From the NCBI GenBank assembly GCA_964505265.1, contig CAZDGN010000001.1, forward strand, positions 86,767-150,766: DNA of 64,000 bases. Reading direction: 5' to 3'. The translations under genes and the position numbers were made by a program. Source of the DNA: an uncultured Rickettsia sp. Its GTDB lineage: Bacteria; Pseudomonadota; Alphaproteobacteria; Rickettsiales; UBA1997. Shown here one piece after another: positions 6,530 through 62,074 of the stretch. Position 1 is the stretch's first letter; each line of letters begins with the position of its first letter. The notes beneath the pieces are model-generated. The model worked only from the letters and a program-made list of their open reading frames with translations. It was not told the DNA's origin and did no database searches.

Positions 6530-6818
6530 CAATTGGACTTTTTAGAGATTAAATTTTTTGTTTTTTAGGTATAAAAATTTTAAAAAAACATTTTAATTTT
6601 GAGATAAACCTAACTTATAAAAAATAAATTTTGTTTAATAATATTTTACCCTTTTAAGTAAATTTTCAGCAACATTTTATTTTGTTGATATATCAAATTG
6701 GCTTTATTGTTTAATACAAAATATTAGGTTTAGTAGAATTTTTTGTTTTTCTAAATCGGATAATTTTTTTGTTTTGTATGTAAAAAATTATATAAGCAAT
6801 GCTGCAATTTATTTTTGC

Positions 6819-7028
6819 GGAAATATAAGGTTTGGATTCTTAAATTAAATTTAACATTTTAAAAGTAGGTAAAGATATAGATAAGTTATCGATAATTGAT
6901 TGATTTTAAATTATCAATTTATTGAAAACCATCATTTTTGCCTAAAGTTTAGATTTTATAATGTTAAAAATATATGGAAATTTTTAGGTTTGAAATTTTA
7001 TATAAATTTGAACTCTTAAATTAAATTT
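6819..7028. repeat. Two copies of a 35-50-bp AT-rich motif (GGAAAT-N-AGGTTTG…CTTAAATTAAATTT) inside the 987-bp spacer
   Basis: Copy 1 is 6819-6852, ggaaatataaggtttggattcttaaattaaattt. Copy 2 is 6976-7028, ggaaatttttaggtttgaaattttatataaatttgaactcttaaattaaatttt. A third, weaker AGGTTT-containing stretch lies near 6724. Confidence 0.4.
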
Positions 7029-7516
7029 TATCAAATTTTTTTATTTTATTTTTTTTAACCAAGCCATAAAAGGTCTTTTTAAAAACGATAAAAGCGATGA
7101 TATAATTCCTTATATCAAAAAATATTTAGTTAGAATTTGAAACTTCAAACCAATATATAAATTTTGTAATTGTATTTATTTAAGATTACTAGAAGCTACC
7201 AAATCTGAATAAATTTTTGGTAAATTATGTATGTTAATTTGATAAAATTTTTTTCAAATTAATAATTCAAAACAGAGCATAGCATATGCTAGTTTTTTTA
7301 GTAAATAATTTTAAGTCCGATTGTTATTATTTTAAGCTTTATGTCTAAGTGATATAGAAGCATAATATTTATGATAATTAAGAATAAAGTATATGTTTTT
7401 AAACTTAAAAATACAACCCAAAAAATTTTAAAAATTAACAATTTTAAAATTTAAAAAATACAACAACTATTTTATTAAAAAATATTTTTAAATCAATTTA
7501 AATTAAAACTTATTTT

Positions 7517-8950
7517 ATGGAAAATTTAAATCATAAAAACAAGGCACTAGTAAATTCTCGCAATCAAATCAATTCTCAATTTATTTTAGATTCATCTGAT
7601 GCATGGGAAATTGATAAGGAAAAGAGGTTCAATCTTGACAAGTTAAACGCTCGCTTTAGGGAGTCGATCCCTGTCCTTGATTTTCTTGATTGGAGAATTG
7701 AAAATATAAAAAGAGGCTATGCTGAAACAGTATTGCCTTTAAATGTTGCCTCTTCAAATCAATATATAACTCATCAGGCGGCATTAATGTTGTTATCAGC
7801 GGATTATACTGGTGGTATAGCGTTGGCAACATTATTTCATCTTGCACCAATTGTTGGTTTCTTTGAGGTCTTTGATGAATATGCAATTTATATGTGGGGT
7901 GCCAAATCAACTATTCGTTGGATTTGTCCTAGTACCTCTGATTTGATTTGTAGGTCAACGATACCCGAAGAATCACGTGAAGTTTTGGTCAATAGAATGA
8001 ATGCTAGTAAAAAAGTTTTGTTTACAGGAAAGGTTGAAATGTTTAACGGCACTAAATTAGTCGCCGATTGCGATTTTACTTATTGGGCTGAAGATATTCA
8101 CGGTCTTAGAAAAAAAGCAATGGATACTGATAAAATTGAAGTTTTATACGAGCATAAATTAAAGACTACTGCCAAGTTAATTTCTGGTTTTAGAGCTTTA
8201 GAGCAAGAGGAGGGAGAGTCTAGACTTGATGATCCATTTGCTTCGGTTATTGCTGGAAAGCACGGCATTACCTTAGCTAAAAGATTTAAAAAGCACACGC
8301 CACAAATTCAAGATATGGTTGTCGCTAGAGCTAAACATCTTGATAATGCGGTTTTGGATTTTATTAAAGATAAAGAATCTTATAATATTGTTAATATTGG
8401 TTCGGGATATGATAATAGATTTATCAGGCTAGATCTTTCAAAGGGCAATATTTTTGATTTGGATTTGCCAACAATGTTAAAAGATCGAGATAAAATTTTT
8501 AATATTTCTTCGAGAGAAAATGTTAAATTAGTTCCAATTGATTTAATTACCCAAGATATTGAAGAGGTTTTATTGAATCCAGCAAATGGATTTAATAAAG
8601 ACTTGCCAACTTTTTTTATTTGGGAGGGGGGGTCAATGTATTTTGGTCAAAATGAAATTAACAAAATTTTTAAAGCATTTTCTAAATTATTAAATAAAAA
8701 TAATAGATTATGGTTTGACTATGTATTATCCGATATTATTCTTGATAAAACTAATATTAAAGAAATTGAGGATTTTATGAAATCAATGAGAGTAATGGGG
8801 GAAGCCTTTATTAATGGCTTCAAAGACATTACTCTTTTTGTAAAAAAATATAATTTAGAAGTTTTGAATAATGAAAAATCTTCAAAAATTCTTAATATTG
8901 ATCAGCCTCATTTTGAGTTTTATAATTTTTGTATCGTATCAAAAAAATAA
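7517..8950 (+). CDS. Fusion protein with an N-terminal hotdog/PaaI-like thioesterase-type domain and a C-terminal LCM-family (leucine carboxyl methyltransferase-like) SAM-dependent O-methyltransferase
   Basis: N-terminal half: DFLDWRIENIKRGYAETVLPLNVASSNQYITHQAALMLLSADYTGGIALATLF. C-terminal half: DPFASVIAGKHG, VNIGSGYDNRFIRL, FDLDLPTMLKDR, PTFFIWEGGSMYF. Confidence 0.7.
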   Translation: MENLNHKNKALVNSRNQINSQFILDSSDAWEIDKEKRFNLDKLNARFRESIPVLDFLDWRIENIKRGYAETVLPLNVASSNQYITHQAALMLLSADYTGGIALATLFHLAPIVGFFEVFDEYAIYMWGAKSTIRWICPSTSDLICRSTIPEESREVLVNRMNASKKVLFTGKVEMFNGTKLVADCDFTYWAEDIHGLRKKAMDTDKIEVLYEHKLKTTAKLISGFRALEQEEGESRLDDPFASVIAGKHGITLAKRFKKHTPQIQDMVVARAKHLDNAVLDFIKDKESYNIVNIGSGYDNRFIRLDLSKGNIFDLDLPTMLKDRDKIFNISSRENVKLVPIDLITQDIEEVLLNPANGFNKDLPTFFIWEGGSMYFGQNEINKIFKAFSKLLNKNNRLWFDYVLSDIILDKTNIKEIEDFMKSMRVMGEAFINGFKDITLFVKKYNLEVLNNEKSSKILNIDQPHFEFYNFCIVSKK

Positions 8951-8965
8951 CTAAAATATTACATA

Positions 8966-11623
8966 ATGCCACAGCCTTTTATAGAAAGATTGCTTAAGTT
9001 TCTTTATGAAAATTATGAAAAAAGTAAATTAAATATCTTTTGGGGATCTTTAGTTTGCCTAGTTGGGCATCCATTATATTGGGCTGTGTGTGTATATCTT
9101 GTAAAAGAGCAATATGACAGTATTTTCTTTCGATTTAGCTCAAGCATAAGTTCTTTAGCTATCTTATTCTTGTTAATTTATTCTTCTCGAAAAAATTACA
9201 AAGCACAACCTTGGCTAATGATTCTGTGGTATTCGTGGGTAATGTGGATTTTGCCAATCACTTTCACTTATTTAATGCTTATTAATGATTTTTCTAAGAT
9301 TTGGTTAGTGGCTGAAACCATTATGATTTTTTTGGTAATTTTAATAGTGAACAATATTTTGCTGATACTGTTAATATTGTCTTTTGGGGTATTTTTTGGT
9401 TATTTATTTTATGATTATCTTTTTGGATATTCTTTAACCATAAGTTTTAGAGAGGTTGCCAGTATTTTATCCTTATTTCCATTTGCCTTTTTTTGCGGAA
9501 CGTTGTTTTTGACAAAGGCAAAAGTTGGCGATTTTGAAAGTAAAAAAGCCTCAATTTTCAAATCATTAGCAGGAGCAATAGCACACGAATTAAGAAACCC
9601 ACTAGCCAGCATCAGCGCTGTTGTAATTAATGTTGAAAATTATATTAATCAAATAAAAAAAAATATTTTTTTCAATGAAGAAATTGATGAAATTAGCAAT
9701 AATATTAAAAATGAAGATTTGGTTAAGAAAATTTTAAATAATTCTGAAAATCTTAAAAATGAAAGAAAACAATTGACACAATTTGTTGATTCGGTAAACC
9801 AGTCTGTTAGGCATGCCAATGATATTATTGATATTGTTTTAAGCGATATTTCTGAGAAAAAAATTGATGAGAATGATTTTATTTATTTATCCGCTTATGA
9901 AGTTATTGAAACCATCCAAAAATATTATCCTCAAAATCTGTATTCATCAAAAATTATATATGAAATTCCAGATCCAGAAAAATTTAGTAACCTATTTTTT
10001 AAAACCACCATCGAGAGATTTTACTTTATTTTCAACAATATAATTAAAAATGCTCTTTATTATTCAAATCAATTTCCAGACATGAATATTGCCATAAGTT
10101 TTGACCAAAAAATTATCTCTGGAAAAAAATATAACTTAATTAACTTTTTAGATAATGGTCCAGGAATTTCTAAATATAATATTAAAAAATTATTTAATGA
10201 TTTTTCTACTTTTAACAAAAAAGGTGGAACTGGACTTGGTTTAGCTTTTTGTAAAAAAAATATGAATTTATTTGGTGGTAATATTTATTGTGAATCGAAA
10301 TATGGCGAAGGTGATAGAGGGTGGACCAGATTTACTTTATTATTTCCATATCCTTCCAAAGAAGATGTTTTGAAAACCAAAGAACTTTCTCAGCAAAAGA
10401 AAATTTTATTGGTAGATGATCATGAAATTAACCTTATAGCCCTTAAAACTAAAATTCAAAAATTATTGCCAAACATAATTTGTGAAACCATAAGTAATTC
10501 AAGAGATGCAATAAATTTGGCCAAAAATAAAAAATTCGATTTGGTCTTAATGGATATTCAAATGCCTGAAATTGACGGAATTGAATCTGCTCGAATAATT
10601 AAAAAAACTAAAAATAATTTACCAATTATTTCGGCAACTTCACTTTCTTATGAAACCTTTTATGAAGATTTGAAAAATCGCGGTAATGTCAATGATTTTT
10701 CTGGCTATATTAGCAAAAATTCACCTTCCAATCAGGTAGCTAGAAATATTTCCAAACTACTTTTTAATTATGAAGATAATCTTAATTATCTTGGTAATAA
10801 AATTGAAAAAATATATAGAAAAATCGCTGGTAAAAAAATAATTTTGGCCGATGATCAGGAGTTGAATTTGGTTATGACTAGAAAAATGTTGGAAAAGTTA
10901 AATGTTATAACGATTGAAGCTAGAAGCGGTATTGAGGTATTAAATTTATATAAAAATAGTCTAGATAATTTTGGAAAAACAAGTTTTAATGCAATTATAA
11001 CCGATATTAATATGGATTTTTTAAATGGGGATGAGGCCTCAAGTGAAATTCGTAAAATTGAAGAAGCTAATAACATTGAATTTGACAAAAAAATACCCAT
11101 AATCGCACTTACAGGAGATGACTCTGCAGATGCGGTATCTGGATATTTTAAAAATGGTATGAATGATTATTTTGTTAAGGGTAAAAATTTTGAAATTTTG
11201 ATAAAGATTTTAGCCAATAATTTTGTTGATATCGATACCGATAAAGATTTCTTAGATAGAAGTTTTAATAATTTTCAACAACCAGAAATTAGCATTAATT
11301 CTAGTAAAGTTTTTAATTCAAATTTTATTTCTAATTTTTCCAAAGAAGAAAAGACGAAAATTTTAAATTTATTTATCGATGATAGTAAGCAAATAATTTC
11401 TAAAATAAAAAAATATAATTCTTTTGGCAATCATGAGGTAGTTAATAATCATTTACATTCTCTTAAGGGGATATTGGCAAATGTTGGTGCCGAAAAAATG
11501 TTCAATTATGTTAAAACAATTGATAAAATTTATAACAACAAATCTCAAAATGATGATTGGGTTAAAAATATAGATGATTTGCATTTAGAATTACTTAAAG
11601 AGTTGGATAGTTTTCTGAATTAA
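8966..11623 (+). CDS. Membrane-bound hybrid sensor histidine kinase: about 6 TM helices, HisKA, HATPase, REC, REC, Hpt
   Basis: Hydrophobic N-terminal segment spans aa 20-185. H-box is AIAHELRNPLASI, with the His codon at 9584-9586. N box is NNIIKNALYYS, G1 is LDNGPGIS, G2 is GGTGLGLAFC. REC1 is LLVDDHEINL…DLVLMDIQMPEIDG. REC2 is ILADDQELNL…AIITDINMDFLNG. Hpt is NNHLHSLKGILANVGA. Confidence 0.9.
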   Translation: MPQPFIERLLKFLYENYEKSKLNIFWGSLVCLVGHPLYWAVCVYLVKEQYDSIFFRFSSSISSLAILFLLIYSSRKNYKAQPWLMILWYSWVMWILPITFTYLMLINDFSKIWLVAETIMIFLVILIVNNILLILLILSFGVFFGYLFYDYLFGYSLTISFREVASILSLFPFAFFCGTLFLTKAKVGDFESKKASIFKSLAGAIAHELRNPLASISAVVINVENYINQIKKNIFFNEEIDEISNNIKNEDLVKKILNNSENLKNERKQLTQFVDSVNQSVRHANDIIDIVLSDISEKKIDENDFIYLSAYEVIETIQKYYPQNLYSSKIIYEIPDPEKFSNLFFKTTIERFYFIFNNIIKNALYYSNQFPDMNIAISFDQKIISGKKYNLINFLDNGPGISKYNIKKLFNDFSTFNKKGGTGLGLAFCKKNMNLFGGNIYCESKYGEGDRGWTRFTLLFPYPSKEDVLKTKELSQQKKILLVDDHEINLIALKTKIQKLLPNIICETISNSRDAINLAKNKKFDLVLMDIQMPEIDGIESARIIKKTKNNLPIISATSLSYETFYEDLKNRGNVNDFSGYISKNSPSNQVARNISKLLFNYEDNLNYLGNKIEKIYRKIAGKKIILADDQELNLVMTRKMLEKLNVITIEARSGIEVLNLYKNSLDNFGKTSFNAIITDINMDFLNGDEASSEIRKIEEANNIEFDKKIPIIALTGDDSADAVSGYFKNGMNDYFVKGKNFEILIKILANNFVDIDTDKDFLDRSFNNFQQPEISINSSKVFNSNFISNFSKEEKTKILNLFIDDSKQIISKIKKYNSFGNHEVVNNHLHSLKGILANVGAEKMFNYVKTIDKIYNNKSQNDDWVKNIDDLHLELLKELDSFLN

Positions 11624-12917: not shown

Positions 12918-14285
12918 TTAGTTATCCATAATTTTTTGTTTAATATTTTCGGCAATATTTTGAATTGCATTCAAATTTTTACCTTCAACCATGATTCGAA
13001 TTAAATTTTCAGTTCCAGATTTGCGAACCAATATTCTGCCTGATTTACCAACAATTTCTTGCTGTGATTTTATGTAATCTTGAATTTCATTTTTTTGCAA
13101 AGGATTGACCTCGCTTTGAAATTTTACATTTACTAAAATTTGTGGATTAAGACTAAAAATCTGCCTCAAATTGCTAATTTTTTGTTGCTTTTGATTGGCT
13201 AGAACTTCAAGAATTTGTAGTGAAGCAATTAGACCGTCGCCAGTAGTGGAGTAGTCTGAAAGCACAATATGACCCGATTGTTCAGCGCCAAAATTACATT
13301 TTTGTTTTTTCATTTCTTCTAAAACATAACGATCGCCAATATTGGTGCGAATTGTAGAAACGCCAATATAATTTAAATATTCCTCCAGTGCCATATTAGA
13401 CATTTGAGTTATGACCACCAAATCTTTTTTAAGCCTGCCTTCATTATGAAGTTTTTCAGCGATAAGAGCAATTAAAATATCGCCATCAATCATATTACCC
13501 AAATCATCAACTACCACTAATCTGTCGGCATCACCATCAAGGGCAATACCAATATCAGCCTGATGTTTCAAGACTTGTTGTTGCAAATCATGCGGATGGG
13601 TGGATCCGCAATTTAGATTAATATTAAAACCATTTGGTTCGGTGTGAATTTCAATAACTTCTGCACCAAGCTCTCGAAAAATTGTGGGTGCGATATTGTA
13701 AGAAGCACCATTTGCGCAGTCGACTACAATTTTAATATTGGTTAAATTTTTATCCTTTGGAAATGAATTTTTAACAAATTCAATATATCGTCCTTTTGGG
13801 TCTTCGAGCCTTTTTACCCGACCTAAATCATCAGATTTTGCTAAATATTTTTCTAAATTGCTATCAATCATTTGTTCAATTTCAAATTCAATTTCGTCAT
13901 CTAATTTGTTACCATCGCGATTGAAAATTTTGATGCCATTATCACCAAATGGATTATGCGAAGCTGAAATCATTATGCCAATATCGGCTCGAAGCGAACG
14001 GGTAAGCATAGAAACTGCTGGTGTTGGCACTGGACCTACTAAAAACACATCAAGACCCATAGCCACAAATCCTGAGGTTAAGGCGGGTTCAATCATATAG
14101 CCCGATAATCTGGTGTCTTTGCCAATTACTACACGGTGGCGATGCGAATCATTAGTGAAAGCCTTGCCAAACCTTGCGCCAAGAGCCATACCAACTTTTA
14201 GGGCAATTTCTGCCGTCATCGGAAATTGATTGGCGGTGCCACGAATGCCATCGGTTCCAAAATATTTTTTATGAATTTTTGTCAT
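12918..14285 (-). CDS. glmM: Phosphoglucosamine mutase
   Basis: Contains the active-site Ser loop ISASHNPFGDNGIK and the metal loop LDGDADRL. Length is 455 aa. Confidence 0.95.
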   Translation of the reverse strand: MTKIHKKYFGTDGIRGTANQFPMTAEIALKVGMALGARFGKAFTNDSHRHRVVIGKDTRLSGYMIEPALTSGFVAMGLDVFLVGPVPTPAVSMLTRSLRADIGIMISASHNPFGDNGIKIFNRDGNKLDDEIEFEIEQMIDSNLEKYLAKSDDLGRVKRLEDPKGRYIEFVKNSFPKDKNLTNIKIVVDCANGASYNIAPTIFRELGAEVIEIHTEPNGFNINLNCGSTHPHDLQQQVLKHQADIGIALDGDADRLVVVDDLGNMIDGDILIALIAEKLHNEGRLKKDLVVITQMSNMALEEYLNYIGVSTIRTNIGDRYVLEEMKKQKCNFGAEQSGHIVLSDYSTTGDGLIASLQILEVLANQKQQKISNLRQIFSLNPQILVNVKFQSEVNPLQKNEIQDYIKSQQEIVGKSGRILVRKSGTENLIRIMVEGKNLNAIQNIAENIKQKIMDN

Positions 14286-14290
14286 CTTAT

Positions 14291-15181
14291 TTATAAACTT
14301 AAAATGGTAATAATTGAAAATAATGTAATAAAAATGCCGATAAGATTTTTTATATTATGTTTTTCATTAAAATAATAAATTGAAATTAAAATGGCAATTA
14401 TTATTTCAATTTGAGCTAATATTTTTACCCCCAATACCTCGCCAAAACTGTAAGCGCTATACCAAAAAAAGGAGCCAATAAAACTAAAAATACTGGCAAT
14501 AAAAAAAGATTTTCGATTTTGAGCATGCCACAATGATTTAATACTTGAAATCAATGATTTTTCTTTAATTTTAATTAAAATAAAAAAAATATTTTGAAAA
14601 AAAATTGTCCATAACAAAACTATGGTTGATGCCAAAAAAATATGGTAATTCTCGTTAATTAAAATTTGAGTTGCATCTTTTAAATTAAAGGCGGTAATGG
14701 CAAAACAAGAACCACATAAAATGCCATAAAAATTTTTTGGATTTTTGATTGAATCAATAAATTCTTGGCGATTATTAAATTTAAAATCACTCATTAAAAT
14801 AATTCCGATAAAAGATAAAATTAATAACAATATTTTAAATGGTAATATTTTAAGATTGTAAAAAAAGTAGCCGATTATTAAAGCTTGAATTGTTTCGGTC
14901 TTGCCTAGAGCAACTGCGATTGAAAAATTTTTACTCTGCATTGCTTTAATCAAAAAAATACTTCCTAACATTTGAAAAAAAGCATTGGTTAAGATATATT
15001 TAAAAAAAACAAAATTGTAGTTTTGGAAAGTGAGTAATACTAAAATTATGGCAATTGGAAATGGCATAATAAATCTTGCCCAAGAAGAGGTTATGGCATC
15101 TACTTTTTTTGATAAATTTTTTTGTTCCAGATTGCGAAAAATTTGAAAAAAAACTGCAAGTAAAGTTAAAATTATCCACAT
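14291..15181 (-). CDS. EamA/DMT-family transporter
   Basis: 296 aa with about 10 predicted TM helices in two-EamA-repeat organisation. Confidence 0.75.
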   Translation of the reverse strand: MWIILTLLAVFFQIFRNLEQKNLSKKVDAITSSWARFIMPFPIAIILVLLTFQNYNFVFFKYILTNAFFQMLGSIFLIKAMQSKNFSIAVALGKTETIQALIIGYFFYNLKILPFKILLLILSFIGIILMSDFKFNNRQEFIDSIKNPKNFYGILCGSCFAITAFNLKDATQILINENYHIFLASTIVLLWTIFFQNIFFILIKIKEKSLISSIKSLWHAQNRKSFFIASIFSFIGSFFWYSAYSFGEVLGVKILAQIEIIIAILISIYYFNEKHNIKNLIGIFITLFSIITILSL

Positions 15182-17215
15182 TTATAATTGCAAAGTTTGT
15201 TTTAAAAAATTTAGCGCATCGGGAATTTTGTTGATATAAACTCCGGCTCCCATCGCCAAATCTTTTTTGCCACCTCCGCCCTTGCCACCAATAATTTCAG
15301 TGATTTGCGGTAAAATTTTGCTTGCATCAAATTTATTAGTTAAGTCGTTAGAAATCGCTAAACAAACTGCAACCTTATCATCGATAATGCCAAAAAAAAC
15401 TAAAATTTGGGATTTAGAAAATTGTTGGGATTTTTGCGCAAACATCATGATTTCTCGAAGGTCTTTGCTGTCGGTTTCTTTGAAAATATGATGAGAAAAA
15501 TTGATACTTTTTATGTTTTCGGTTTGAATTTTTTGTAAATTTTGGCTCCAAATTTCTTGTTTTAAACGCAAAATTTCCTTATCTTTTTCCTTAATATTTT
15601 GTAAAAAATCAATTCCAATTTGGGTAGTCTTTTCTAGGGCTTGATTTAGGTTTTGACTTTGACTTTTATTGATAATTTTTGGAGTATTTTCGTTAAGAAA
15701 ATAACTTAAATCATCATAGCCAACTTTGTTTGATAAAAACTCGTTTTCAGCAATTTTTACCTCATCAAATTGTTGCTTTACCTTAAGAGAATTCAATAAA
15801 GCGTAGAATTTTTGTTCTTGGAGTTTTAAATGTTGAAGTGCGTAAAAACCTGATTTGGCAGTAATTCTACGAACTCCAGATGCTACTCCATTTTCAGAGA
15901 TAATTTTAAAAATTCCAATATTGCCAGTATTTTCAACATGAGTTCCGCCGCATAATTCAACCGAAGGGCCCATGGCAACAACTCGAACGATATCGTCATA
16001 TTTTTCGCCAAAAAGAGCCTCGGCACCGGAATTTCTGGCCTGATCAATTGGCATTTCATTGGTATGAATTTTTGAATTTTGACGAATGTAAAAATTGACC
16101 AACTCCTCAACCTGTTCAATTTCTTCATTTGACATCGCGCGATTTAAATTAAAATCGAAAGTAAGTTGTTTGGCATCAACATTTGAACCTTTTTGCGAGA
16201 TGGAATTGCCCAAAACCTCTTTCAAAGCCTTGTGCAAAAGGTGAGTTGCCGAGTGATTTTGTGCCCGAAATTGGCGATTGCGATTATTGACGATGGCAAT
16301 AACTTCATCGCCGATTGATAGATTTCCTTTAAAATCGGCAACGAAATGCGCAAAAAGATTTCCAGCAAATTTTTTGGTTTCCAAAATATCGACAAAATTT
16401 TCAATATTATTATAGTCAATTGGTTTATTTTCTTGATAATTTGTTGAAATAAATAAATTTCCATCATCGCCTTTTTGACCACCTGAAGTAGCATAAAATG
16501 GGGTTTGGTCAAGAATTATAAAAATTAAATCACCAGCTTTTTTTTCAATTAAATTTAAATTCGATACTTCTTTAAGATTATGAAAAATTCCTAAAATTTT
16601 TGCTCGTGCTTTAGTGGTTTGGTGATATAAAAATTTAGTTTCACCAAATCTTTCTTTAAGTGTAAAAAAGATTTTGTCATCAGCGATTTCACCACTTCCA
16701 GCCCAACTTTGACGGGCTCTTTGGCGTTGATTTTCCATTTCTGATTCAAATTTATCGAGATCAATTTCTAAATTATTTTCGCTACAAATATTTTGTGTTA
16801 AATCAAGCGGAAAGCCAAAAGTGTCGTAGAGTTTAAAGGCAATTTCCCCTGATAATTTTTGCTTTGAATTATTAGAATTTTTAATTTTGGCAATTTCTTC
16901 ATCCAAAATTTTTAAGCCATTTTCGAGGGTTTCACGAAATTTTTCTTCTTCATTTTTTAAGGTTTCGATAATTACATTTTTAGCCCTAGATAATTCGGGA
17001 AAATTTTCCCCCATTTCGGTAATTAAAGCTACAACCAATTGGTGCATAATTAAATTTTTTGCTCCCAATTTATGAATTTGGCGAACACTTCTGCGAATAA
17101 TTCTGCGAAGTACGTATCCTCTACCTTCATTACTTGGTAAAATGCCATCGGCAATTAAAAAACAGCTAGAGCGTAAATGATCGGCAATGATTTTATATTC
17201 AGTTTTTAAAGACAT
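15182..17215 (-). CDS. alaS: Alanyl-tRNA synthetase lacking the N-terminal catalytic core (tRNA-recognition, editing and C-Ala domains only)
   Basis: It starts [42 protein letters not shown]. This aligns to about residue 278 onward of E. coli AlaRS ([37 protein letters not shown]). Editing motifs HSATHLLH and CGGTHV are present, as is the C-Ala motif [16 protein letters not shown]. A TAA lies one codon upstream of the ATG in frame. Confidence 0.9.
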   Translation of the reverse strand: [677 protein letters not shown]

Positions 17216-18113
17216 TTTTTAGAATTTTGTTTAAACTATTTTTATTCACAAATTCAATCGAAATTGCAACTATTATTAAAATTAAACCAAAGGTTCCAAA
17301 AATTGTAAAGGTGAAATTTTCTAAAAATGCAGAAACAATCAATGCAATTGTTGGGTAAATTAATGCAGTGTAATTGGCTCTAACTGAACCAATTTTTTGT
17401 ATTAAATAATATAGACACAAAAAGGCAACGATTGAGGAAAAAAATATTTGATAAAGTAATGAATAAATAAATTTAGTTGAATAATCAAATTCAAAATTAT
17501 GGCTTAAAGCGAGATTTAAAATAAATAAAAAAACCGAGCTAAAGCCAGAATAATAGGCAATTGCGGTGAATAAAGGAGTATGATTCTGGTTGCGGTTTTT
17601 TTCTACTAAAAAATTGCCAAAAGAAAATACAATCATCATAAAAATTCCAAGAACGAAACCCAGAATTTTTTGGCTCAATGGTGAATTGTCAAATTGCAAG
17701 AAGGGAGCGATAAATAATATTAATCCAATGGTGCCGATAGTGCTGCTTATGATAATTTTTTTCTGAATTTTTTTGCCATCGAAAATAGCTTTAAAAATTT
17801 CTGAAGTGATAATTGTTAGACTAAAAATTACTGCAATCATACCGCTTGGAATAAATTTACTGGCATGATAACCGATAATAAAATTCAAGAAAAAATTGCA
17901 AAAGGCGATGCTTAGAAAAAATTTATATTCAGTTTTGAAGGGTTTTAATCTTTTATTAGTGATTATGCATAGTAAAAACATTATTAGGGAGACGGGGAGG
18001 AAACGGTAAAATAATGAAATTTCGGGTGGCAAAAATGATTGAACCTGAAATTTCATTGCAATCCAGCTAAAACCCCAAGCAAAGCACATTCCAATGAAGG
18101 CAGTTAATGTCAT
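17199..18113 (-). CDS. EamA/DMT-family transporter
   Basis: 304 aa with about 10 TM helices. Its 3' end overlaps the alaS-fragment start by 17 nt. Confidence 0.75.
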   Translation of the reverse strand: MTLTAFIGMCFAWGFSWIAMKFQVQSFLPPEISLFYRFLPVSLIMFLLCIITNKRLKPFKTEYKFFLSIAFCNFFLNFIIGYHASKFIPSGMIAVIFSLTIITSEIFKAIFDGKKIQKKIIISSTIGTIGLILFIAPFLQFDNSPLSQKILGFVLGIFMMIVFSFGNFLVEKNRNQNHTPLFTAIAYYSGFSSVFLFILNLALSHNFEFDYSTKFIYSLLYQIFFSSIVAFLCLYYLIQKIGSVRANYTALIYPTIALIVSAFLENFTFTIFGTFGLILIIVAISIEFVNKNSLNKILKNVFKN

Positions 18114-23248: not shown

Positions 23249-26200
23249 ATGCAAAATTTAATCAAACAAGTTTTAGAATTCTCCAAAAAAACTAAAATTA
23301 AGGAATTAAATCTCGACAAATTTTCAAATTTTATTCAAGAATTTTATATTGAAAATAAATTGGTCGATTTTGAAAATTATAATACCGAATCTTTATACTA
23401 TTATTCTTTATCTGCATATAAATTTTTAAATCAAAAAAAATCCAATAATTTTAATATTAGAATATACAATCCAAGTAAAGCCAATGATGGTTTTGAAAGT
23501 CCGTATACTATAATAGAAATTGTCAATAAAGACATGCCATTTTTAGTAGACTCTTCGGTTAATTTTTTGGATAAGCAAAGTATTAAAATTAACAACATAA
23601 TTCACCCCGTTTTTAAGGTTAAAAGAAGTAGCGAAGGAGACTTTCTTGAAGTTTGTAACTCTGGTACAGATGAGTCTTTAATCCAATTGCATTTAGATAA
23701 AATTACCAATGAATCAGAAATTAATTTGCTAAAAGAAAATCTTAGTAAAATTCTTGATACAATTGCTTTGGTGGTTAATGATTTTGAAGTAATGAAGGAA
23801 TATGTCAAAAAAGCCAGTTCTCAGATTGCAAATGCAAAAAAAATATGTAATGAAGAAGAAATTTTACAATATCAAGAGTTTTTGAATTGGGTTTTGGCTG
23901 GAAATTTTATTTTGCTTGGATGTAAAGAGTTTGATATTAAAAAAAACGACAACAGCTATGAGTTATTTGAGGTCGCCAACACTTCATTTGGGGTTTTTAA
24001 ATCTAAATATCCAGATTTTCTTCCTGAAGTTGTAAATGCTTCACCTCAAGAAGTTGGCGATTCAATTAATTTGCCATTTGTAATTGAGGTTATCAAATCA
24101 AGATATCGCTCGAAAATTCATCGCTCAACCAATGCTGAGAGAATTCGTGTTCAAAAATTTTCTGCTGATGGAAAGGTGATGGGAGAGTTTCGTTTTATTG
24201 GTTTATTTACTTCAAATGTTTATTATTCGAGTGTGTTTTCAATTCCACTTTTGAAAAATAAGATTAACCATGTTATTGAAAAATCTGAATATGTTAAAGG
24301 AAGTCATAATTACAAGGATTTAATTTCTATACTTGAATCTTATCCTCGCGATGAATTATTTCAGATTAGCGAAGATGATTTGCTAAAAAATTCAACAGGA
24401 ATAGTTTCCATTGCTGGTCGTTCAATTGTTAAATTTTTTGCCCGCAAAGATAAATTTAATCGCTTTGTAAGTTGTTTAATTTATACACCAAGAGACCGCA
24501 CTAATTCCGATATTAGAGAAAAAATTAAAAGTTATTTATGCGAAGTTTTTAATGGTGAAGTCGCAGATTCATTCCTGCAAATCACCGAATCAAATCTTAT
24601 TCGATTTCACCTTATAGTTCGAACTAATAAAGGCGTTCCAAATTATGATGAATCTCATATTGAGCAAGAGATTGTAAGAATTACTAAAATTTGGAGCGAT
24701 GAATTGGTGGAAGAATTGAAAAATAAATTTGAAAACGAGCAAAGAATAATTCTATATCCAAAATATAAAAATTCTTTTTCGGTTAGTTATATCGATAGAT
24801 TTGATGCTAAAACCGCTTGCGATGATATTGAATTTATTGAGCAATCATTTGCTTCAAATTCGGCAATTTTTAAATTAAAACAAAATATCGATAATTGTGA
24901 AAAAGAAATTACCGAATTAAAAATTTATTCTCCGCATCAAGAAATTATTCTATCATCAATTATGCCAGTGCTTGATAGCTTTGGATTAAATGTTATCAAG
25001 GAGCATACTTATCTAATAAATGTCGAAGAAGATGCCAAAAATCGTTCAATAAAAAAAGCATGGATTCATTATTTTAAGGTTGAGATTTCCAAAAATAGTG
25101 ATGTAAAATTTTCAACCCAATTAAAACAAAATTTTGAAAATGCAATTGATGCTTTATGGCATCAAAAAACTAAAATAGGTGCATTAAATAAATTAATTAT
25201 TTTATGCAATTTTTCTTGGAAGCAAGTATTCATACTTAGAGCTCTTTCAAAATATTTATATCAAGCTGGGTTTAAAATCAATCAAAGTAATGTAGCAGAG
25301 TGTTTTGCTCGCAACAGTCAAATTTGCAAAAAATTGATTGAATTATTTGAGTTAAAATTCAATCCAAATTTAAATATTGAACATAAAGATAGGCTTATAA
25401 AACTTGATGATTTAATCAAAAATATAAATGATGATTTGATAATTATTAAAGATGTTAACGATGATGCTATAATTAAAAGATTTTTATCAGTAATCATTGC
25501 ATGTCTTCGCACTAATTTTTATCAAACCGATATTAATGGCGAATTCAAAGGTTATGTGTCCTTTAAATTTGATTGCAAGAAAATTCCAAACCTACCATTA
25601 CCTCTTCCTTATGCCGAAATTTTTGTTTATTCGCCAAGAGTAGAGGCGGTGCATTTAAGGGGTGGAAAAGTTGCTAGGGGAGGTTTGCGTTGGTCTGATC
25701 GTCACGAAGATTTTCGCACTGAAGTTTTGGGTTTGATGAAGGCTCAAATGACTAAAAATGCAGTAATTGTTCCGGTTGGGTCAAAAGGTGGCTTTGTGGT
25801 TAAGTCTGATACTTCAAAAATGTCGCGTGATGAGTATCAAAAAGAAGGGATTGAGTGTTATAAAACTTTCTTGCGTGGTTTATTAGATATTACCGATAAT
25901 GTAATTGATAACAAAATTATTCATCCACAAAATGTAATAATGCATGATGAGTCCGACCCATATCTAGTTGTTGCCGCCGATAAGGGAACGGCAACATTTT
26001 CCGATATAGCCAATTCGGTTTCAATTGAATATAATTTTTGGCTTGGCGATGCTTTTGCCTCGGGCGGTTCTGCTGGCTATGATCATAAAAAAATGGGAAT
26101 TACTGCCAAAGGGGCTTGGATTTCAGTAATGAGGCATTTTAGAGAATTTGGAGTAGATATTCAAAACCAAGATTTCACCGTAATGGGAATTGGCGATTTA

Positions 26201-28072
26201 TCGGGGGATGTGTTTGGTAATGGAATGTTGCTTTCTAAGCATATCAAATTGCTGGGCGCCTTTAACCATCTTCATATATTTTTAGACCCAAATCCAAATC
26301 CTCAAGAGTCATTTAAGGAAAGAGAAAGAATGTTTAATTTACCACGCTCTACTTGGATGGATTATGATAAATCAAAAATTTCTAAGGGTGGTGGAGTTTT
26401 TGAAAGATCGGCAAAATCAATTAAATTAACTCCTGAAATAAAAGAAATGCTAAAAATCTCTGATGATGAATTAGCTCCAATTGATTTGATGAAAATTATG
26501 CTTAAAGCTCCAGTTGATTTGCTTTGGAATGGTGGCATCGGAACTTATGTCAAATCAAGCGAGGAAACTCATCAAGATGTTGGTGATAAAGCAAATGATT
26601 TGCTTAGAATTAATGGTAATGAGCTAAATTGCAAAGTGGTTGGAGAAGGCGGAAATCTTGGATTTACGCAAAAAGGAAGAATCGAATTTGCCAAAAAAGG
26701 TGGTCGAATCAATACCGACGCTATGGATAATTCTGCTGGCGTTGATTGTTCTGATCATGAAGTAAATATTAAAATCGCTTTAATTTCTGCTTTAAAAAGC
26801 AAAAAAATTAATTTAGAAGAGCGAAATAAAATGCTTGAAGCGATGACTGACAATGTTTCACATTTGGTGTTACTAGACAACAAATTGCAAACCCAAGCTA
26901 TTTCTATTGCTCAAAGCCTTCCAAGTTCAGCACTTAGCGAACAGTCGCAATTTTTGGATAGTCTAGAATCTTCTGGATTACTTAATAGAGCAATTGAGTT
27001 TTTACCAAATCGCAAAGAAATTGAAAGATTGCAAATTGAGCAAAAAACTCTAACTCGCCCCGAGTTATGTGTTATGCTAGCTTATTCTAAAATGGATATT
27101 TATAATAAAATATTAAATTCTGATTTGGTAAAGGATAAATATTTTGAAAAGGATTTATTGGCATATTTTCCAAAATTAATGCAAGAAAAATTGCCAAGTG
27201 AAATTATAAATCATCAATTAAGAAATGAAATTATTGCCACTCAAATTACTAATTTTGTGGTCAATAGAATTGGTATCACCTTTATCAACCAAATCTGTCA
27301 GGATAGTGGTTTTTCTTTGGTTGATGTAGTTAAAAACTTTATTATCGCTACTGATTCCTTTGGTGTTGGCGAGATTTGGCAAGAAATTGAAGATCTTGAT
27401 GGAAAAATTCCGTTAAATACTCAAACTCAAATGTTTGTTAGTGCAAATAAATTGATAGAAAGGTCAGTTTTATGGCTTTTGCGCAATCAAGTGAAAGGCT
27501 CAATTAGCGAAATTGTTGCCAGATTCGATAAAATTGCTGACGAACTTTTTGGAATTTTATCTTCGGTTATGGCACAAGCTTCTAGAGAATCATTTGAAAG
27601 AAAAATTGAAAGATATTGTATTAGCAATATCGACCGCAAACTCGCTGAAAAGGTTGCTTCGCTTGACCCAGTTGCCTCGGCTTTTGATATTGCAGAAATT
27701 GCAATTTCTACCAAACTTGAAATAAAAAAAATTGCTGAAATTTATTTTGCAGTCGGCACTAGATATTCTCTAAAGTGGCTTAGAAGCAGGCTAAACAAAA
27801 TCAATTTAAGCAATAGATGGCAAAAATTATCAAGCAAAACCGTGCTTGAAGATTTATATTCATATCAAATGAAATTATCTAAGGATATTGCAATTTTTAG
27901 CACCAATGAAAATTTTAGAAATGTCAATGAATTAATTTCTAGTTATTGCAAAAAATCTTCTTTCTTAACCGAGAGATTTGATAATTTTATTGCCGAACTT
28001 AAAAACGAACCCAACCCTGATTTATCTATGTTTATTGTAGCATTGAACCGCATAAAACCTTTAATAAATTAG
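23249..28072 (+). CDS. gdhZ: Large (about 180 kDa class) NAD-specific glutamate dehydrogenase
   Basis: 1607 aa. The catalytic region reads RGGLRWSDRHEDFRTEVLGLMKAQMTKNAVIVPVGSKGGF. Confidence 0.93.
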   Translation: MQNLIKQVLEFSKKTKIKELNLDKFSNFIQEFYIENKLVDFENYNTESLYYYSLSAYKFLNQKKSNNFNIRIYNPSKANDGFESPYTIIEIVNKDMPFLVDSSVNFLDKQSIKINNIIHPVFKVKRSSEGDFLEVCNSGTDESLIQLHLDKITNESEINLLKENLSKILDTIALVVNDFEVMKEYVKKASSQIANAKKICNEEEILQYQEFLNWVLAGNFILLGCKEFDIKKNDNSYELFEVANTSFGVFKSKYPDFLPEVVNASPQEVGDSINLPFVIEVIKSRYRSKIHRSTNAERIRVQKFSADGKVMGEFRFIGLFTSNVYYSSVFSIPLLKNKINHVIEKSEYVKGSHNYKDLISILESYPRDELFQISEDDLLKNSTGIVSIAGRSIVKFFARKDKFNRFVSCLIYTPRDRTNSDIREKIKSYLCEVFNGEVADSFLQITESNLIRFHLIVRTNKGVPNYDESHIEQEIVRITKIWSDELVEELKNKFENEQRIILYPKYKNSFSVSYIDRFDAKTACDDIEFIEQSFASNSAIFKLKQNIDNCEKEITELKIYSPHQEIILSSIMPVLDSFGLNVIKEHTYLINVEEDAKNRSIKKAWIHYFKVEISKNSDVKFSTQLKQNFENAIDALWHQKTKIGALNKLIILCNFSWKQVFILRALSKYLYQAGFKINQSNVAECFARNSQICKKLIELFELKFNPNLNIEHKDRLIKLDDLIKNINDDLIIIKDVNDDAIIKRFLSVIIACLRTNFYQTDINGEFKGYVSFKFDCKKIPNLPLPLPYAEIFVYSPRVEAVHLRGGKVARGGLRWSDRHEDFRTEVLGLMKAQMTKNAVIVPVGSKGGFVVKSDTSKMSRDEYQKEGIECYKTFLRGLLDITDNVIDNKIIHPQNVIMHDESDPYLVVAADKGTATFSDIANSVSIEYNFWLGDAFASGGSAGYDHKKMGITAKGAWISVMRHFREFGVDIQNQDFTVMGIGDLSGDVFGNGMLLSKHIKLLGAFNHLHIFLDPNPNPQESFKERERMFNLPRSTWMDYDKSKISKGGGVFERSAKSIKLTPEIKEMLKISDDELAPIDLMKIMLKAPVDLLWNGGIGTYVKSSEETHQDVGDKANDLLRINGNELNCKVVGEGGNLGFTQKGRIEFAKKGGRINTDAMDNSAGVDCSDHEVNIKIALISALKSKKINLEERNKMLEAMTDNVSHLVLLDNKLQTQAISIAQSLPSSALSEQSQFLDSLESSGLLNRAIEFLPNRKEIERLQIEQKTLTRPELCVMLAYSKMDIYNKILNSDLVKDKYFEKDLLAYFPKLMQEKLPSEIINHQLRNEIIATQITNFVVNRIGITFINQICQDSGFSLVDVVKNFIIATDSFGVGEIWQEIEDLDGKIPLNTQTQMFVSANKLIERSVLWLLRNQVKGSISEIVARFDKIADELFGILSSVMAQASRESFERKIERYCISNIDRKLAEKVASLDPVASAFDIAEIAISTKLEIKKIAEIYFAVGTRYSLKWLRSRLNKINLSNRWQKLSSKTVLEDLYSYQMKLSKDIAIFSTNENFRNVNELISSYCKKSSFLTERFDNFIAELKNEPNPDLSMFIVALNRIKPLIN

Positions 28073-28191: not shown

Positions 28192-28278
28192 GCGTTCGTG
28201 GCGGAATTGGTATACGCGTAACGTTGAGGTCGTTATGGGGTAACACCCGTGGAAGTTCAAGTCTTCTCGAACGCACCA
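28192..28278 (+). tRNA. tRNA-Leu(GAG), type II with long variable arm and encoded CCA
   Basis: Hand fold. Acceptor stem is GCGTTCG/CGAACGC. D arm is GCGG…(A)CGC. Anticodon stem is TAACG/CGTTA with loop TTGAGGT, giving anticodon GAG. Variable arm is GGGGTAACACCC. T arm is GGAAG-TTCAAGT-CTTCT. Discriminator is A, followed by CCA. Confidence 0.9.
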
Positions 28279-39218: not shown

Positions 39219-40349
39219 ATGAAACCAAAAATATTAAAAAATAACTTTAAAATAAATACTGCAAACCCTGATTTTAATAATATTCAATCAGAATTATTTA
39301 ACGATTATAATAATTATGTTAACCAAAACAATCATCCTGATTTTATTGATATTGATGAACTCTGGAGTGGCACAAAAAAAACTAAATTAACCGCTTTAGA
39401 TTTGTTTTGTGGATGCGGTGGAATTTCAAAAGGCTTGGAATTGGCTGGAATAAATGTTTTGGCAGGTCTAGATTTTTTTAAAGAAGCAGGTGACACATAT
39501 CAAGCAAATTTTAATCACAAATTTATTTATGGTGACATAACTCAAGAAGAAGTTAAAAATAAATTATATTCGCAAATTAAATCGAGTTTAAAGGGAAAAA
39601 AATTGAATATTATTGCCGGAGGCTTTCCTTGCCAAGGTTTTTCAATGTCAGGTAGAAGAGATAAGAGTGACCCCAGAAATAGACTTTATCTAGAGGTTGT
39701 TGATATAGTTAAAAATTTAGAACCAGAATATATTTTTCTTGAAAATGTCAAGGGTTTGATTTCAATGGATAACGGAAAGGTTAAAGAAAAAATTCTAGGT
39801 GATTTTCAAAATCTTGGATACGAAATTAAAGCTTATGTTTTAAATGCAGTTAATTTTGAAACTCCTCAAAAGAGAGAGAGGGTGGTATTTTTGGGTAATA
39901 GAATTGGAAAAAAAATATTATATCCAAACTCAATTATTAAAGACAATAAATTTAAAACTACCAAAGATGCAATTGAAGATTTGATTAGTCTTGAAGAAGA
40001 TAAGGATTTTAGTCATTTTATTACTAAGCACAACAAGGATATGCAGTCTAGGCTTTTGAGTGTGAAGGAGGGTAAGGGACTTTATGAAAATTACTCAGAT
40101 TCATGGAAAAAATGTCCGTGGAACGAGCCATCATGCACTATTAAAGAGAATCATGGAGGGGTAAATATTCATCCAAAGCTACCGCGAGTCTTAACAGTTC
40201 GAGAATGTGCTAGGATTCAAGGTTTTCCCGATGATTTTATTTTTAAAGGTACAAAAAGTAAACAATTGGTACAAATTGGTAATGCAGTTCCTCCAATGCT
40301 TGCAAAAGCGGTAGGATTAGCAATAATTAAAAGTTATAAAAATAAGTAA
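39219..40349 (+). CDS. DNA (cytosine-5)-methyltransferase, type II
   Basis: All canonical m5C motifs occur in order. Motif I is DLFCGCGGISKG, IV is GGFPCQGFS, VI is ENVKGL and VIII is QKRERVVFLG. Motif IX is TVRECARIQGFPDDF and X is QIGNAVPPMLA. Confidence 0.95.
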   Translation: MKPKILKNNFKINTANPDFNNIQSELFNDYNNYVNQNNHPDFIDIDELWSGTKKTKLTALDLFCGCGGISKGLELAGINVLAGLDFFKEAGDTYQANFNHKFIYGDITQEEVKNKLYSQIKSSLKGKKLNIIAGGFPCQGFSMSGRRDKSDPRNRLYLEVVDIVKNLEPEYIFLENVKGLISMDNGKVKEKILGDFQNLGYEIKAYVLNAVNFETPQKRERVVFLGNRIGKKILYPNSIIKDNKFKTTKDAIEDLISLEEDKDFSHFITKHNKDMQSRLLSVKEGKGLYENYSDSWKKCPWNEPSCTIKENHGGVNIHPKLPRVLTVRECARIQGFPDDFIFKGTKSKQLVQIGNAVPPMLAKAVGLAIIKSYKNK

Positions 40350-40356
40350 AGTTCAG

Positions 40357-40932
40357 TTGTTTTTAGAATTGGCAAACCCTGATAAAACTGGTAATTCTAG
40401 AAAAGTATTAGTTGAGGAATTTGTTGGTAAATATGAGAAATTAAAATTTGGAAATGGTGGAGATTGGTGTAGATCAGACGGAAGTTTGGCTAATAAATTT
40501 ATAGTCGAAAGATTTAAAGATGGCAATTCAATTGTTGCGGTTCAATTATTTGGTCACAATACCAAGAAAAAAATTAATAAACAAATAGATAGTAAAATTT
40601 CAAAAATAATTAAATCTCAAAAATGTGAAGTTCTTTATGTTGGAAATGTTGAAGTAGACCACAAGGATGGACATAGAGATGATTTCGAAAATTTAAAAAT
40701 AAAAAATCAAAAAATTGACGATTTTCAACCGCTTCCACCATCTGTTAATAAAGCAAAAAGACAGCATTGCAAAAATTGTAGAGAAACTAAGCAGAGATTC
40801 GATGCTAGATTGCTTGGATATTCAAAATCTGCTTGGGCAGGAAATGGAAAATATCGCGGTACTTGTGTTGGATGTTATTGGTATGATATAAAAAAATTTA
40901 ATCAAGAAATATCCAAAAACTATTTCAGCTAA
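40357..40932 (+). CDS. Small HNH (beta-beta-alpha-Me) nuclease, probable cognate type II restriction endonuclease
   Basis: The HNH-like core is VEVDHKDGHRDD…QPLPPSVNKAKR. Two CxxC pairs are present (HCKNC and CVGC). The start is TTG, 7 nt after the methyltransferase stop. Length is 191 aa. Confidence 0.65.
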   Translation: MFLELANPDKTGNSRKVLVEEFVGKYEKLKFGNGGDWCRSDGSLANKFIVERFKDGNSIVAVQLFGHNTKKKINKQIDSKISKIIKSQKCEVLYVGNVEVDHKDGHRDDFENLKIKNQKIDDFQPLPPSVNKAKRQHCKNCRETKQRFDARLLGYSKSAWAGNGKYRGTCVGCYWYDIKKFNQEISKNYFS

Positions 40933-61211: not shown

Positions 61212-62072
61212 TTAATTTAATTTTAAAATATAAAAATTTGATTCCACTGCTTGTCTTAATTCTTTATACCAATTTTTTTCATTTGCCGAGGTGTGGTCGA
61301 CAACTTGGACAAAAAAACGACATTGATTTTTTTTTCCATAATCAAGCAAGGATTTGGTTTGCCCCTTCATTTCCTTTGGCTGAAGAGGATTGCCAAAGGA
61401 AATATTGATATTTAAATCAGCTTGGTCTTGTGCTCGATTCGGTATATTATTATTAAAAATTACAATACCATCATCACGCAAATAAACATTAAAAATATAT
61501 TCAGGGGAGCCATTTGCCTTAGCCCAACAAGGTGGAAAGCCTATGCCTTTGACTTTACGTATAAGGTGCAAATTTTGCCCCTCCAAATTGTTAATTTTTT
61601 TGGATAATGAAATTTTTTCATTGAGCAATTCTTTAAGTTCATTTTCTAACTTCATTTCTTTGGTAAGAACTGGCGCAACTGGCATAGCAAGCGGATTTTC
61701 AAGTTCCTTAACCTCGCTTTCTTGAATTTCTTTTTCCAAATCTTCGCGCATTTTTTGTAATAATTGATCTAAATTTACCTCTTCCTTGTCTGGTAGTTTA
61801 TTTCGTTTCTCCACTAATTTTTTTATTTCTGGAAGTTTTTCAAGACCTTCAACAAGCTCCTGTGTAAGTGGTTGCTCTTTTTTTTCAATAAAATTTACCA
61901 GCCTTTCAATACTCTCTTCATTTTTCTTATATTTTTCGACTTTTCTTTGTTCTTTTTTGATGAAAAATGAAAATGCTAACAATAAAACAAAAATAATCAT
62001 GATGGTTATTTCCGACATCGTCAGCCCCATAATTAAGCCTTTGCGATAGCTTTTATTGTCGGCATTAGACAT
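61212..62072 (-). CDS. Single-TM protein with an ExbD/TolR/MotB-like acidic TM helix, an E/K-rich coiled coil and an unassigned C-terminal domain
   Basis: The TM helix is GLTMSEITIMIIFVLLLAF (compare the INVTPFIDVMLVLLIIF type). An E/K-rich helical region of about 120 aa follows. The C-terminal domain contains GFPPCWAKANGSPEYIF and has no OmpA/PG-binding motif. The start lies 2 nt after the upstream stop. Confidence 0.55.
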   Translation of the reverse strand: MSNADNKSYRKGLIMGLTMSEITIMIIFVLLLAFSFFIKKEQRKVEKYKKNEESIERLVNFIEKKEQPLTQELVEGLEKLPEIKKLVEKRNKLPDKEEVNLDQLLQKMREDLEKEIQESEVKELENPLAMPVAPVLTKEMKLENELKELLNEKISLSKKINNLEGQNLHLIRKVKGIGFPPCWAKANGSPEYIFNVYLRDDGIVIFNNNIPNRAQDQADLNINISFGNPLQPKEMKGQTKSLLDYGKKNQCRFFVQVVDHTSANEKNWYKELRQAVESNFYILKLN

Positions 62073-62074
62073 AA

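Follow-up and report, generated by a model that had tools for sequence, protein, structure and literature searches.

The question raised by this locus is how alanine can be charged onto its tRNA in a bacterium whose alaS gene lacks the part of the enzyme that carries out the chemistry. The DNA analysed here, referred to as the window, is a stretch of 64,000 nucleotides (nt) from contig CAZDGN010000001.1 of an uncultured Rickettsia sp., and the gene in question, named here alaS-C, is an open reading frame (ORF) of 677 amino acids (aa) that corresponds to alanyl-tRNA synthetase (AlaRS) without its class II catalytic core. A first-pass annotation, made from the sequence alone, had left four explanations side by side, namely a split AlaRS, a long AlaX-like paralog, a recently truncated pseudogene and an assembly chimera. 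The first of these gained ground when a family of catalytic halves of about 261 aa was found that ends where alaS-C begins, and we consider it likely that a widespread clade of aquatic Alphaproteobacteria has a naturally split, heteromeric AlaRS, of which alaS-C provides the large subunit.

The truncated gene alaS-C

The features of alaS-C and of its upstream boundary are as follows.

15182..17215, minus strand: alaS-C, gene for the C-terminal (“beta-like”) subunit of the probable split AlaRS (677-aa ORF, Pfam, NCBIfam)
16706..17215, minus strand: helical tRNA-recognition domain, residues 1-170 (alignment to E. coli AlaRS 280-438)
17102..17137, minus strand: motif with Asn29, counterpart of the E. 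coli Asn that reads G3:U70 (invariant in a 14-sequence alignment)
16796..16819, minus strand: FGFPLDLT with Asp138, counterpart of the second G3:U70-reading residue (aligns to E. coli FGFPVDLT)
15860..16522, minus strand: AlaX-M-like editing domain, residues 232-452, including tRNA_SAD (NCBIfam AlaXM, Pfam)
16232..16255, minus strand: HSATHLLH (HxxxH), first half of the editing-site zinc motif, residues 321-328
15938..15952, minus strand: CGGTH (CxxxH), second half of the editing-site zinc motif, residues 422-426 (C422-H426 invariant)
15188..15478, minus strand: C-Ala (DHHA1-like) domain, residues 580-676 (Pfam DHHA1)
15269-15289, minus strand: glycine-rich motif GGKGGGG in C-Ala, residues 643-649
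17199..18113, minus strand: EamA-family transporter gene upstream of alaS-C (Pfam EamA)
17199..17215, minus strand: 17-nt overlap of the EamA stop and the alaS-C start (read from the sequence)

The class II core with motifs 1-3 is not part of this polypeptide, since the profile matches begin at position 268/269: Pfam tRNA-synt_2c is matched only at positions 269-550 of 552, followed by tRNA_SAD and DHHA1, and the NCBIfam alaS profile TIGR00344 at positions 268-847 of 847 with 507 bits (cutoff 457). In an alignment with the 441-aa fragment of E. coli AlaRS (3HXU/3HXZ; E = 1.4e-47), residues 7-170 pair with 280-438, and as residue 7 corresponds to E. coli residue 280, residue 1 falls at about 274, which is close enough to the residue 278 estimated beforehand. 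In canonical AlaRS the helical tRNA-recognition domain belongs to the aminoacylation unit. In alaS-C this domain is helical in the AlphaFold2 (AF2) model and matched 3HXU over about 168 columns in Foldseek, and both Asn29 and Asp138 are invariant in the alignment of alaS-C relatives. The role of the Asn as a G3:U70 reader in AlaRS is established (Naganuma 2014, cited in PMC11392972). The editing domain was matched by NCBIfam AlaXM with 85 bits, far under the 300-bit cutoff, and by Pfam tRNA_SAD at residues 410-451; in HSATHLLH, invariance is complete at S322, H325, L326, L327 and H328 and nearly complete at H321, A323 and T324. The C-Ala domain matched that of Aquifex (3G98) with a target-normalised template modelling (TM) score of 0.91 in Foldseek. 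The recognition, editing and C-Ala parts expected of an AlaRS were therefore all found, as the first-pass annotation had read them, with KIIADH at residues 8-13 and the motifs HSATHLLH, CGGTH and GGKGGGG in place, and the catalytic core is the part that is missing.

Nor was such a core found elsewhere in the window, in agreement with the earlier reading: a tblastn search with an N-terminal AlaRS probe matched only the start of alaS-C, and Pfam scans detected no class II core among 59 window ORFs of at least 100 aa (the presumed genes out of 60 listed, short ORFs overlapping longer genes being excluded). The place where a canonical alaS would carry the catalytic core is taken by the overlap with the EamA gene, whose length of 17 nt was confirmed from the sequence. 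An in-frame TAA upstream of the ATG is also present, at 17221-17219, though it lies two codons away, with an AAA codon between, and not one codon as had been stated.

The truncated form is not peculiar to the window. A protein search in a collection of 5.8 billion clusters returned at least 120 relatives of alaS-C with 51-97% identity at 90-100% query coverage, and all of those listed have the truncated form with a length of 604-749 aa, all but six of them falling between 659 and 703 aa. The start a few residues before KIIADH is shared by 14 aligned relatives and by the loci L084, L086 and L087. Residues 1-45, immediately behind this start, are the best conserved part of the protein with 80% mean pairwise identity and 60% invariant columns, and the editing core (residues 311-460) shows 73% mean pairwise identity.

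The catalytic half and its fit to alaS-C

If alaS-C is a subunit, the catalytic core would have to be encoded in a gene of its own. For such genes, here called N-halves as opposed to the C-halves of the alaS-C family, metagenomes were scanned with a DNA pattern consisting of the block KHNDL[DE]NVGYT[not P]RHHTFFEM with an AGR arginine codon, exclusion of the Pro variant of SAR11 and an upstream alphaproteobacterial Met-Phe anchor. The conserved KHNDL block has C-ending codons even in genomes of 30% GC. Of the loci collected for comparison, the pattern passed only Rickettsia, and the metagenome scan gave at least 120 loci. Stand-alone AlaRS cores ending in a stop codon were found at L161:353-1144 (263 aa), on a 42.6-kb contig where a convergent ankyrin-type gene and a class I LysRS follow, and at L095:168-953 (261 aa). 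A protein search with the L095 N-half returned at least 120 clusters with 72-100% identity and a length of 253-307 aa, mostly 260-263 aa, in which PF01411 is the only domain. The members lie well inside long contigs, in three recurring contexts (HK/RR, histidine kinase/response regulator; OMP, outer membrane protein; Ank, ankyrin).

Context 1: FolE-OmpH-N-AnmK...PGK
Context 2: HK/RR-N, then convergent Ank-LysRS-MiaB-BON
Context 3: EF-Tu-OMP-N-dadA

All conserved blocks of the AlaRS core are kept in the N-halves, with RAGGKHNDLDNVG.TARHHTFFEMLGNFSFG, GPCGPCSEIF, EIWNLVFMQ and DTGMGLER as invariant blocks. The AF2 model of the N-half (pLDDT, predicted local distance difference test, 74; pTM, predicted TM score, 0.78) has a query-normalised TM score of 0.83 to 3HXU, with 59% identity to E. 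coli AlaRS across the structural alignment. On TIGR00344 the N-half scores 383 bits, which is under the 457-bit alaS cutoff. Synonymous sites are saturated within the family, and the proportion of nonsynonymous differences (pN) is 0.10-0.20. Among representatives at 50% identity, the N-halves collapse to one 265-aa entry at the head of the list, after which come mostly full-length AlaRS of 800-1040 aa, mixed with shorter, probably partial, sequences; this points to a single origin of the family. A genome-contig search with the C-half alignment gave, among the matches listed, only full-length alphaproteobacterial alaS (L004-L083), a protein search with the N-terminus of L009, the closest full-length relative, gave fragments of GC-rich alphaproteobacterial AlaRS and no N-half, and the phylogeny revealed no clear full-length sister for either half. 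In NCBI records, the C-half is named “alanine--tRNA ligase”, and most N-halves have neither accession nor name, one being a “hypothetical protein”.

The two families were compared on the same references, on which they cover the following ranges.

E. coli AlaRS (3HXU/3HXZ): N-half, residues 3-267; C-half, residues 280-438
TIGR00344 profile: N-half, positions 1-247; C-half, positions 268-847

All N-halves end at one alignment column, close to E. coli residue 270 and directly behind the helix ...NYEIDxFKNLIxxIxKxx. L009, which is full-length, has the linker KTKAEGDKKPS behind this column, and YKVIADH follows about 12 residues on; therefore, the break would remove only the variable linker of about 10 residues. 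The last residue of the N-halves falls 3-4 residues before the C-half start, which itself lies 6 residues before KIIADH. To judge from these alignments, the halves abut without overlap, and the break falls between E. coli residues of about 270 and 274. The two families, both alphaproteobacterial and with 30-38% GC, were found in the same aquatic habitats.

The proposed two-gene enzyme and the alternatives

According to the model proposed here, an ancestral single alaS gene came apart within the variable stretch linking the class II core to the helical recognition domain. A separate gene of about 261 codons elsewhere on the chromosome would now encode the bare core, responsible for alanine activation and its transfer to the tRNA, and the 677-aa chain would supply recognition of G3:U70 in the acceptor stem, deacylation of Ser- and Gly-tRNAAla, and elbow binding and dimerisation through C-Ala. 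The two polypeptides would bind non-covalently through the surface that joins the same domains in single-chain AlaRS, and we infer that the resulting complex is the only AlaRS of the cell. A search of seven lineages for an N-half at a distance of up to 10 kb from the C-half gave none; because the halves lie in different operons, the stoichiometry of the subunits would be set in trans. Judging from known AlaRS fragments, each half would be non-functional alone.

The model requires both halves in one genome. The public sequencing run X1, in which all sampled words of the window (100%) are present, also contains a 19.7-kb contig with one N-half-family gene, which is 83-84% identical to L095 at the DNA level with a colinear divergent stretch of 110 nt and closer to L095 than any other N-half compared. 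The word depth of this kind of contig and of the window contigs was compared in three runs.

Run X1: N-half-family contig 11.4; window contigs 10.2, 12.1, 11.1 and 11.4
Run X3: N-half-family contig 10.9; window contigs about 10-11
Run X4: N-half-family contig 10.4; window contigs 7.3-9.8

In X25-X28, which are among the runs that hold the L095 N-half, word depth is only 4-8. Orthologous neighbours common to N-half and C-half loci are RNase E (57% identity), FabH (66%) and a DadA-like protein (47%), and in tetranucleotide signature, N-half and C-half loci reach correlations of up to 0.98, mostly above the correlation of either with SAR11 or Rickettsia. Depth, shared neighbours and composition are indirect support for a single genome that would carry both halves, which is the weakest link of the model. 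The X1 contigs at the two ends of the window (10.0 kb and 29.7 kb) differ from the 19.7-kb N-half contig, and therefore the N-half does not lie immediately outside the window.

Several observations weigh against a split enzyme as proposed. In E. coli AlaRS, the fragment 368N has no activity on tRNA, and aminoacylation needs at least 442N (PMC11392972). The 261-aa core is thus shorter than any E. coli AlaRS fragment known to aminoacylate tRNA, and its activity would depend wholly on the presumed association in trans. The match in depth between N-half and window comes from three runs, the more complex runs X9, X10, X15 and X16 being too noisy to score. Twelve contig look-ups gave no assembly or contig common to an N-half and a C-half; no sample was shared among the N-halves P0349, P0335, P0271, P0336 and P0242 and C-halves P0053 and P0001. 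The X1 variant, which would be the window strain's own N-half, is matched by none of the N-half sequences compared, and a second, full-length alaS may be present in these genomes.

Such a second gene is the premise of the alternative that survives best, in which alaS-C would be a long AlaX-like paralog for trans-editing or tRNA binding and a complete AlaRS would be encoded elsewhere in the genome. Free-standing AlaX proteins (AlaX-S, AlaX-M and AlaX-L) are a known kind and likewise carry a homologous editing domain with HxxxH and CxxxH free of a catalytic core; the well-conserved editing core of alaS-C (73%), in which both zinc motifs are invariant, and its partial AlaXM match would fit this. 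However, alaS-C is far longer than AlaX proteins, has a full C-Ala and keeps the 170-aa recognition domain that they are without, whose start is the best conserved part of the protein, and it scores above the cutoff as alaS (507 bits) rather than as AlaXM (85 bits against 300). Furthermore, the 261-aa core family would be left without a recognition domain and without any other partner. Among the alaS-like contigs listed for X1, only that of the N-half family, at window depth, matched over more than about 130 nt, in a search that required at least 80% identity to the N-half reference and that a divergent full-length alaS would escape. We therefore regard the paralog, one of the options of the first-pass annotation, as disfavoured and improbable.

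The two families could also belong to different organisms, their complementarity being coincidental and the hosts of the C-half obtaining catalysis in some other way. The linkage within one genome is indirect, consisting of depth, neighbours and composition, and the runs with the L095 N-half (X25-X48) share none with those of the window (X1-X24). This non-overlap, however, only shows that L095 is a population distinct from that of the window, and X1, X3 and X4 do have an N-half-family gene at window depth. A coincidence would moreover have to account for break points that agree within about 4 residues, for the shared class, GC content and aquatic habitats of two families with at least 120 clusters listed for each, and for halves that would each be inactive alone. 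We consider this explanation very improbable.

The reading of alaS-C as a recently truncated pseudogene in decay is refuted by its conservation. It could appeal to the loss of an essential domain and to the N-halves, most of which have no NCBI protein accession, suggesting that they are treated as incomplete. However, the ratio of nonsynonymous to synonymous substitution rates (dN/dS) of alaS-C is 0.044 (dS 0.28) against L215, a relative with 97% identity, and 0.13-0.27 in deeper pairs, where dS is saturated; none of the at least 120 listed clusters, down to 51% identity, contains a frameshift or stop, length and start are uniform in the relatives, and the gene is part of a tightly packed, operon-like run. 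Decay was excluded on these grounds and is given a vanishingly small probability.

An assembly chimera joining the EamA gene to the middle of an alaS gene at about 17.2 kb, for which only the unusual gene structure speaks, is just as implausible. The stretch is present in twenty runs from nine studies, and in eight public runs the region is covered throughout (8/8), with single Logan contigs or unitigs crossing the junction in at least five of them: contigs of 14.0 kb in X1 (0 differences) and 11.3 kb in X3, and unitigs in at least X2, X9 and X10, with 0-4 differences overall. No joint at the junction was reported across the eight runs, and the same EamA-alaS junction occurs in independent NCBI, JGI, ENA and Logan assemblies of relatives. 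The chimera was accordingly rejected.

That the halves are joined into a single chain by a split intein, a known route to one protein from two genes, or by frameshifting or bypass during translation can be set aside as having hardly any probability, as there is no room for an IntN of about 100 aa or an IntC of about 35 aa, no intein family was found in Pfam, and the halves are not adjacent at any locus examined.

For the split AlaRS, which thus remains the favoured reading, a possible origin is indicated by the neighbours of the two halves. In L216, a dadA-like gene (6791-8008) begins one base after the N-half stop, and in L086, a dadA-like gene (8761-10023) runs 23 nt into the start of the C-half. 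Full-length identity of the two DadA proteins is 47%, and they score 358-379 bits on NCBIfam NF001933, just under the cutoff of 383. Because N-half and dadA are adjacent in one lineage and dadA and C-half in another, the ancestral order may have been N-half, dadA, C-half. A dadA-like gene would then have come into the linker-coding region of alaS, and later rearrangements would have broken the order on either side of dadA and scattered the pieces. No lineage was found with N-half, dadA and C-half together, and the window contains no dadA equivalent. These arrangements hint at a link between the alaS split and a dadA-like gene, which is itself alanine-related. The full scenario, a widespread aquatic alphaproteobacterial lineage with an obligately heteromeric AlaRS and the smallest free-standing class II synthetase core known (261 aa, without readers of tRNA identity, G3:U70 recognition coming wholly in trans), split by way of dadA in the linker, is put forward tentatively and may well not hold in all its parts.

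Known systems, gene neighbourhood and host clade

AlaRS is described as the only synthetase whose four-domain “prototype” architecture persists throughout biology, with N. equitans as the sole split exception (PMC10036535, 2023). Our literature search found no description of a bacterial split AlaRS; subscription journals were mostly beyond its reach, so that this absence is no proof. For G3:U70-specific charging, N. equitans requires both subunits (PMC11392972; PMC10036535), and its alpha subunit, equivalent to E. coli 1-368, retains the portion of the recognition domain in which the Asn determinant lies (PMC11392972). The comparison with Nanoarchaeum that had been drawn for this locus holds in kind, as AlaRS would here too be encoded in two distant genes of one genome, one for the catalytic N-terminal part and one for a C-terminal part that bears the editing domain and C-Ala. 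The break point differs: compared with about residue 368 in Nanoarchaeota, it lies at about 270/274, about 100 residues earlier, with the Asn and the Asp both located on the C-half. In addition, the clade belongs to the Bacteria and is widespread in fresh and marine waters, unlike Nanoarchaeota, which are restricted to hyperthermophilic symbionts. Because the sequences are alphaproteobacterial, the split would be independent of that in Nanoarchaeota.

Bacterial GlyRS, with an alpha chain of about 300 aa and a beta chain of about 700 aa, resembles the proposed enzyme (261 and 677 aa) in pairing a free class II core with a large tRNA-binding chain. The nearest non-AlaRS fold to the N-half model is the GlyRS alpha core (3RGL, 3RF1 and 5F5W), with which AlaRS shares subclass IId (bioRxiv 10.1101/2021.08.20.456953). 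However, the beta subunit of bacterial GlyRS has no domain in common with AlaRS (bioRxiv 10.1101/2021.08.20.456953); the amino acid is a different one, and the large subunits are non-homologous, so that the resemblance is one of analogy only. The GlyRS arrangement is also ancient and near-universal in bacteria, whereas the split AlaRS would be a derived state, reached in a single clade by the breakage of a fused gene. Taken together, the two halves give the four domains and all diagnostic motifs of canonical AlaRS (E. coli alaS, TIGR00344), from which they differ in being two polypeptides that lack the linker of about 10 residues. The mini-AlaRS of Tupanvirus is another natural departure from the prototype (PMC10036535), truncated in the opposite way, with the catalytic and recognition domains in one chain and without editing and C-Ala domains.

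An AlaRS divided between core and recognition domain in a bacterium would be a further case of a split AlaRS, the second and independent of the first, and of interest to aminoacyl-tRNA synthetase specialists. Its break would separate the chemistry completely from tRNA identity, both G3:U70 readers being on the other chain. It would thus offer a natural experiment on the coupling between the “operational RNA code” of alanine and catalysis, on communication between editing and aminoacylation across subunits, and on whether the architectures of AlaRS and bacterial GlyRS are related by fission and fusion. The split is invisible in standard annotation, and single-copy-marker counts based on PF01411 would double; the naming of the C-half and the missing records of the N-half would bias the annotation of the clade and quality estimates for its metagenome-assembled genomes.

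Downstream of alaS-C, the following genes complete the immediate neighbourhood.

14291..15181, minus strand: second EamA paralog, beginning directly behind the alaS-C stop codon (also in L215)
12918..14285, minus strand: glmM (Pfam PGM_PMM I-IV)

The gene is thus bracketed by two EamA paralogs. The order RNase J-EamA-alaS-C is common to L001, L087, L212 and L215, and the upstream EamA gene and its junction with alaS-C are kept in all four. At least five neighbourhoods were distinguished in the family: RNase J-EamA-alaSC (the window type), Mrp-alaSC-RNase J, YggT/alaSC-Tmk, dadA-alaSC-glmM, and RNase J-EamA-alaSC followed by a SidC_N-domain protein. glmM is the next gene after alaS-C in L086, and in L212 it is found about 9.5 kb downstream; adjoining or near in several lineages, it is probably an ancestral neighbour. 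The flanks of full-length alaS genes showed no synteny with the window.

The window has 30% GC, is gene-dense and was found in riverine, freshwater and estuary metagenomes. Depositors labelled the relatives “Rickettsiales”, “Rickettsiaceae” or “Alphaproteobacteria bacterium”. An assignment of the window to SAR11 was rejected, since the alaS of Pelagibacteraceae is full-length and only 40% identical. Pfam scans identified ordinary housekeeping genes, including LeuRS, TyrRS, FtsZ, IF3, purine and histidine biosynthesis, MraY and a Mur ligase. Among them, a C5 cytosine DNA methylase (39219-40349) is followed by an IceA-family (NlaIII-like) endonuclease (40357-40932), a pair that looks like a type II restriction-modification system. 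A leucine-rich repeat (LRR) protein is encoded at 1025-1996. In a relative, a 1646-aa SidC_N-domain protein (L212:12245-17185) and VirB3 lie beside the C-half, and ankyrin-repeat proteins are convergent to the N-half at L161:1167-2981 and L226:8393-9496. Such genes of host-interaction type around the alaS halves suggest a host-associated or predatory lifestyle, though many biosynthetic genes are kept.

Further features of the window include a 1607-aa NAD-specific glutamate dehydrogenase (23249-28072) with the full set of ACT and helical-motif domains, which is syntenic with the alaS-C block in L001. A tRNA-Leu(GAG) was predicted by ARAGORN at 28192-28278, and a scan of the whole window at the Rfam gathering thresholds gave no match, tRNA family included. 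Three consecutive minus-strand ORFs of 286, 261 and 273 aa (61212-63650) have no significant Pfam family; one of them shows a weak apolipoprotein-like match, far under the cutoff and probably due to a coiled coil. Finally, an 885-aa hybrid sensor kinase with HisKA, HATPase_c, two receiver stretches and Hpt is encoded at 8966-11623 in this streamlined genome of 30% GC, and a kinase/receiver protein that is not detectably orthologous to it lies just upstream of the N-half in L226.

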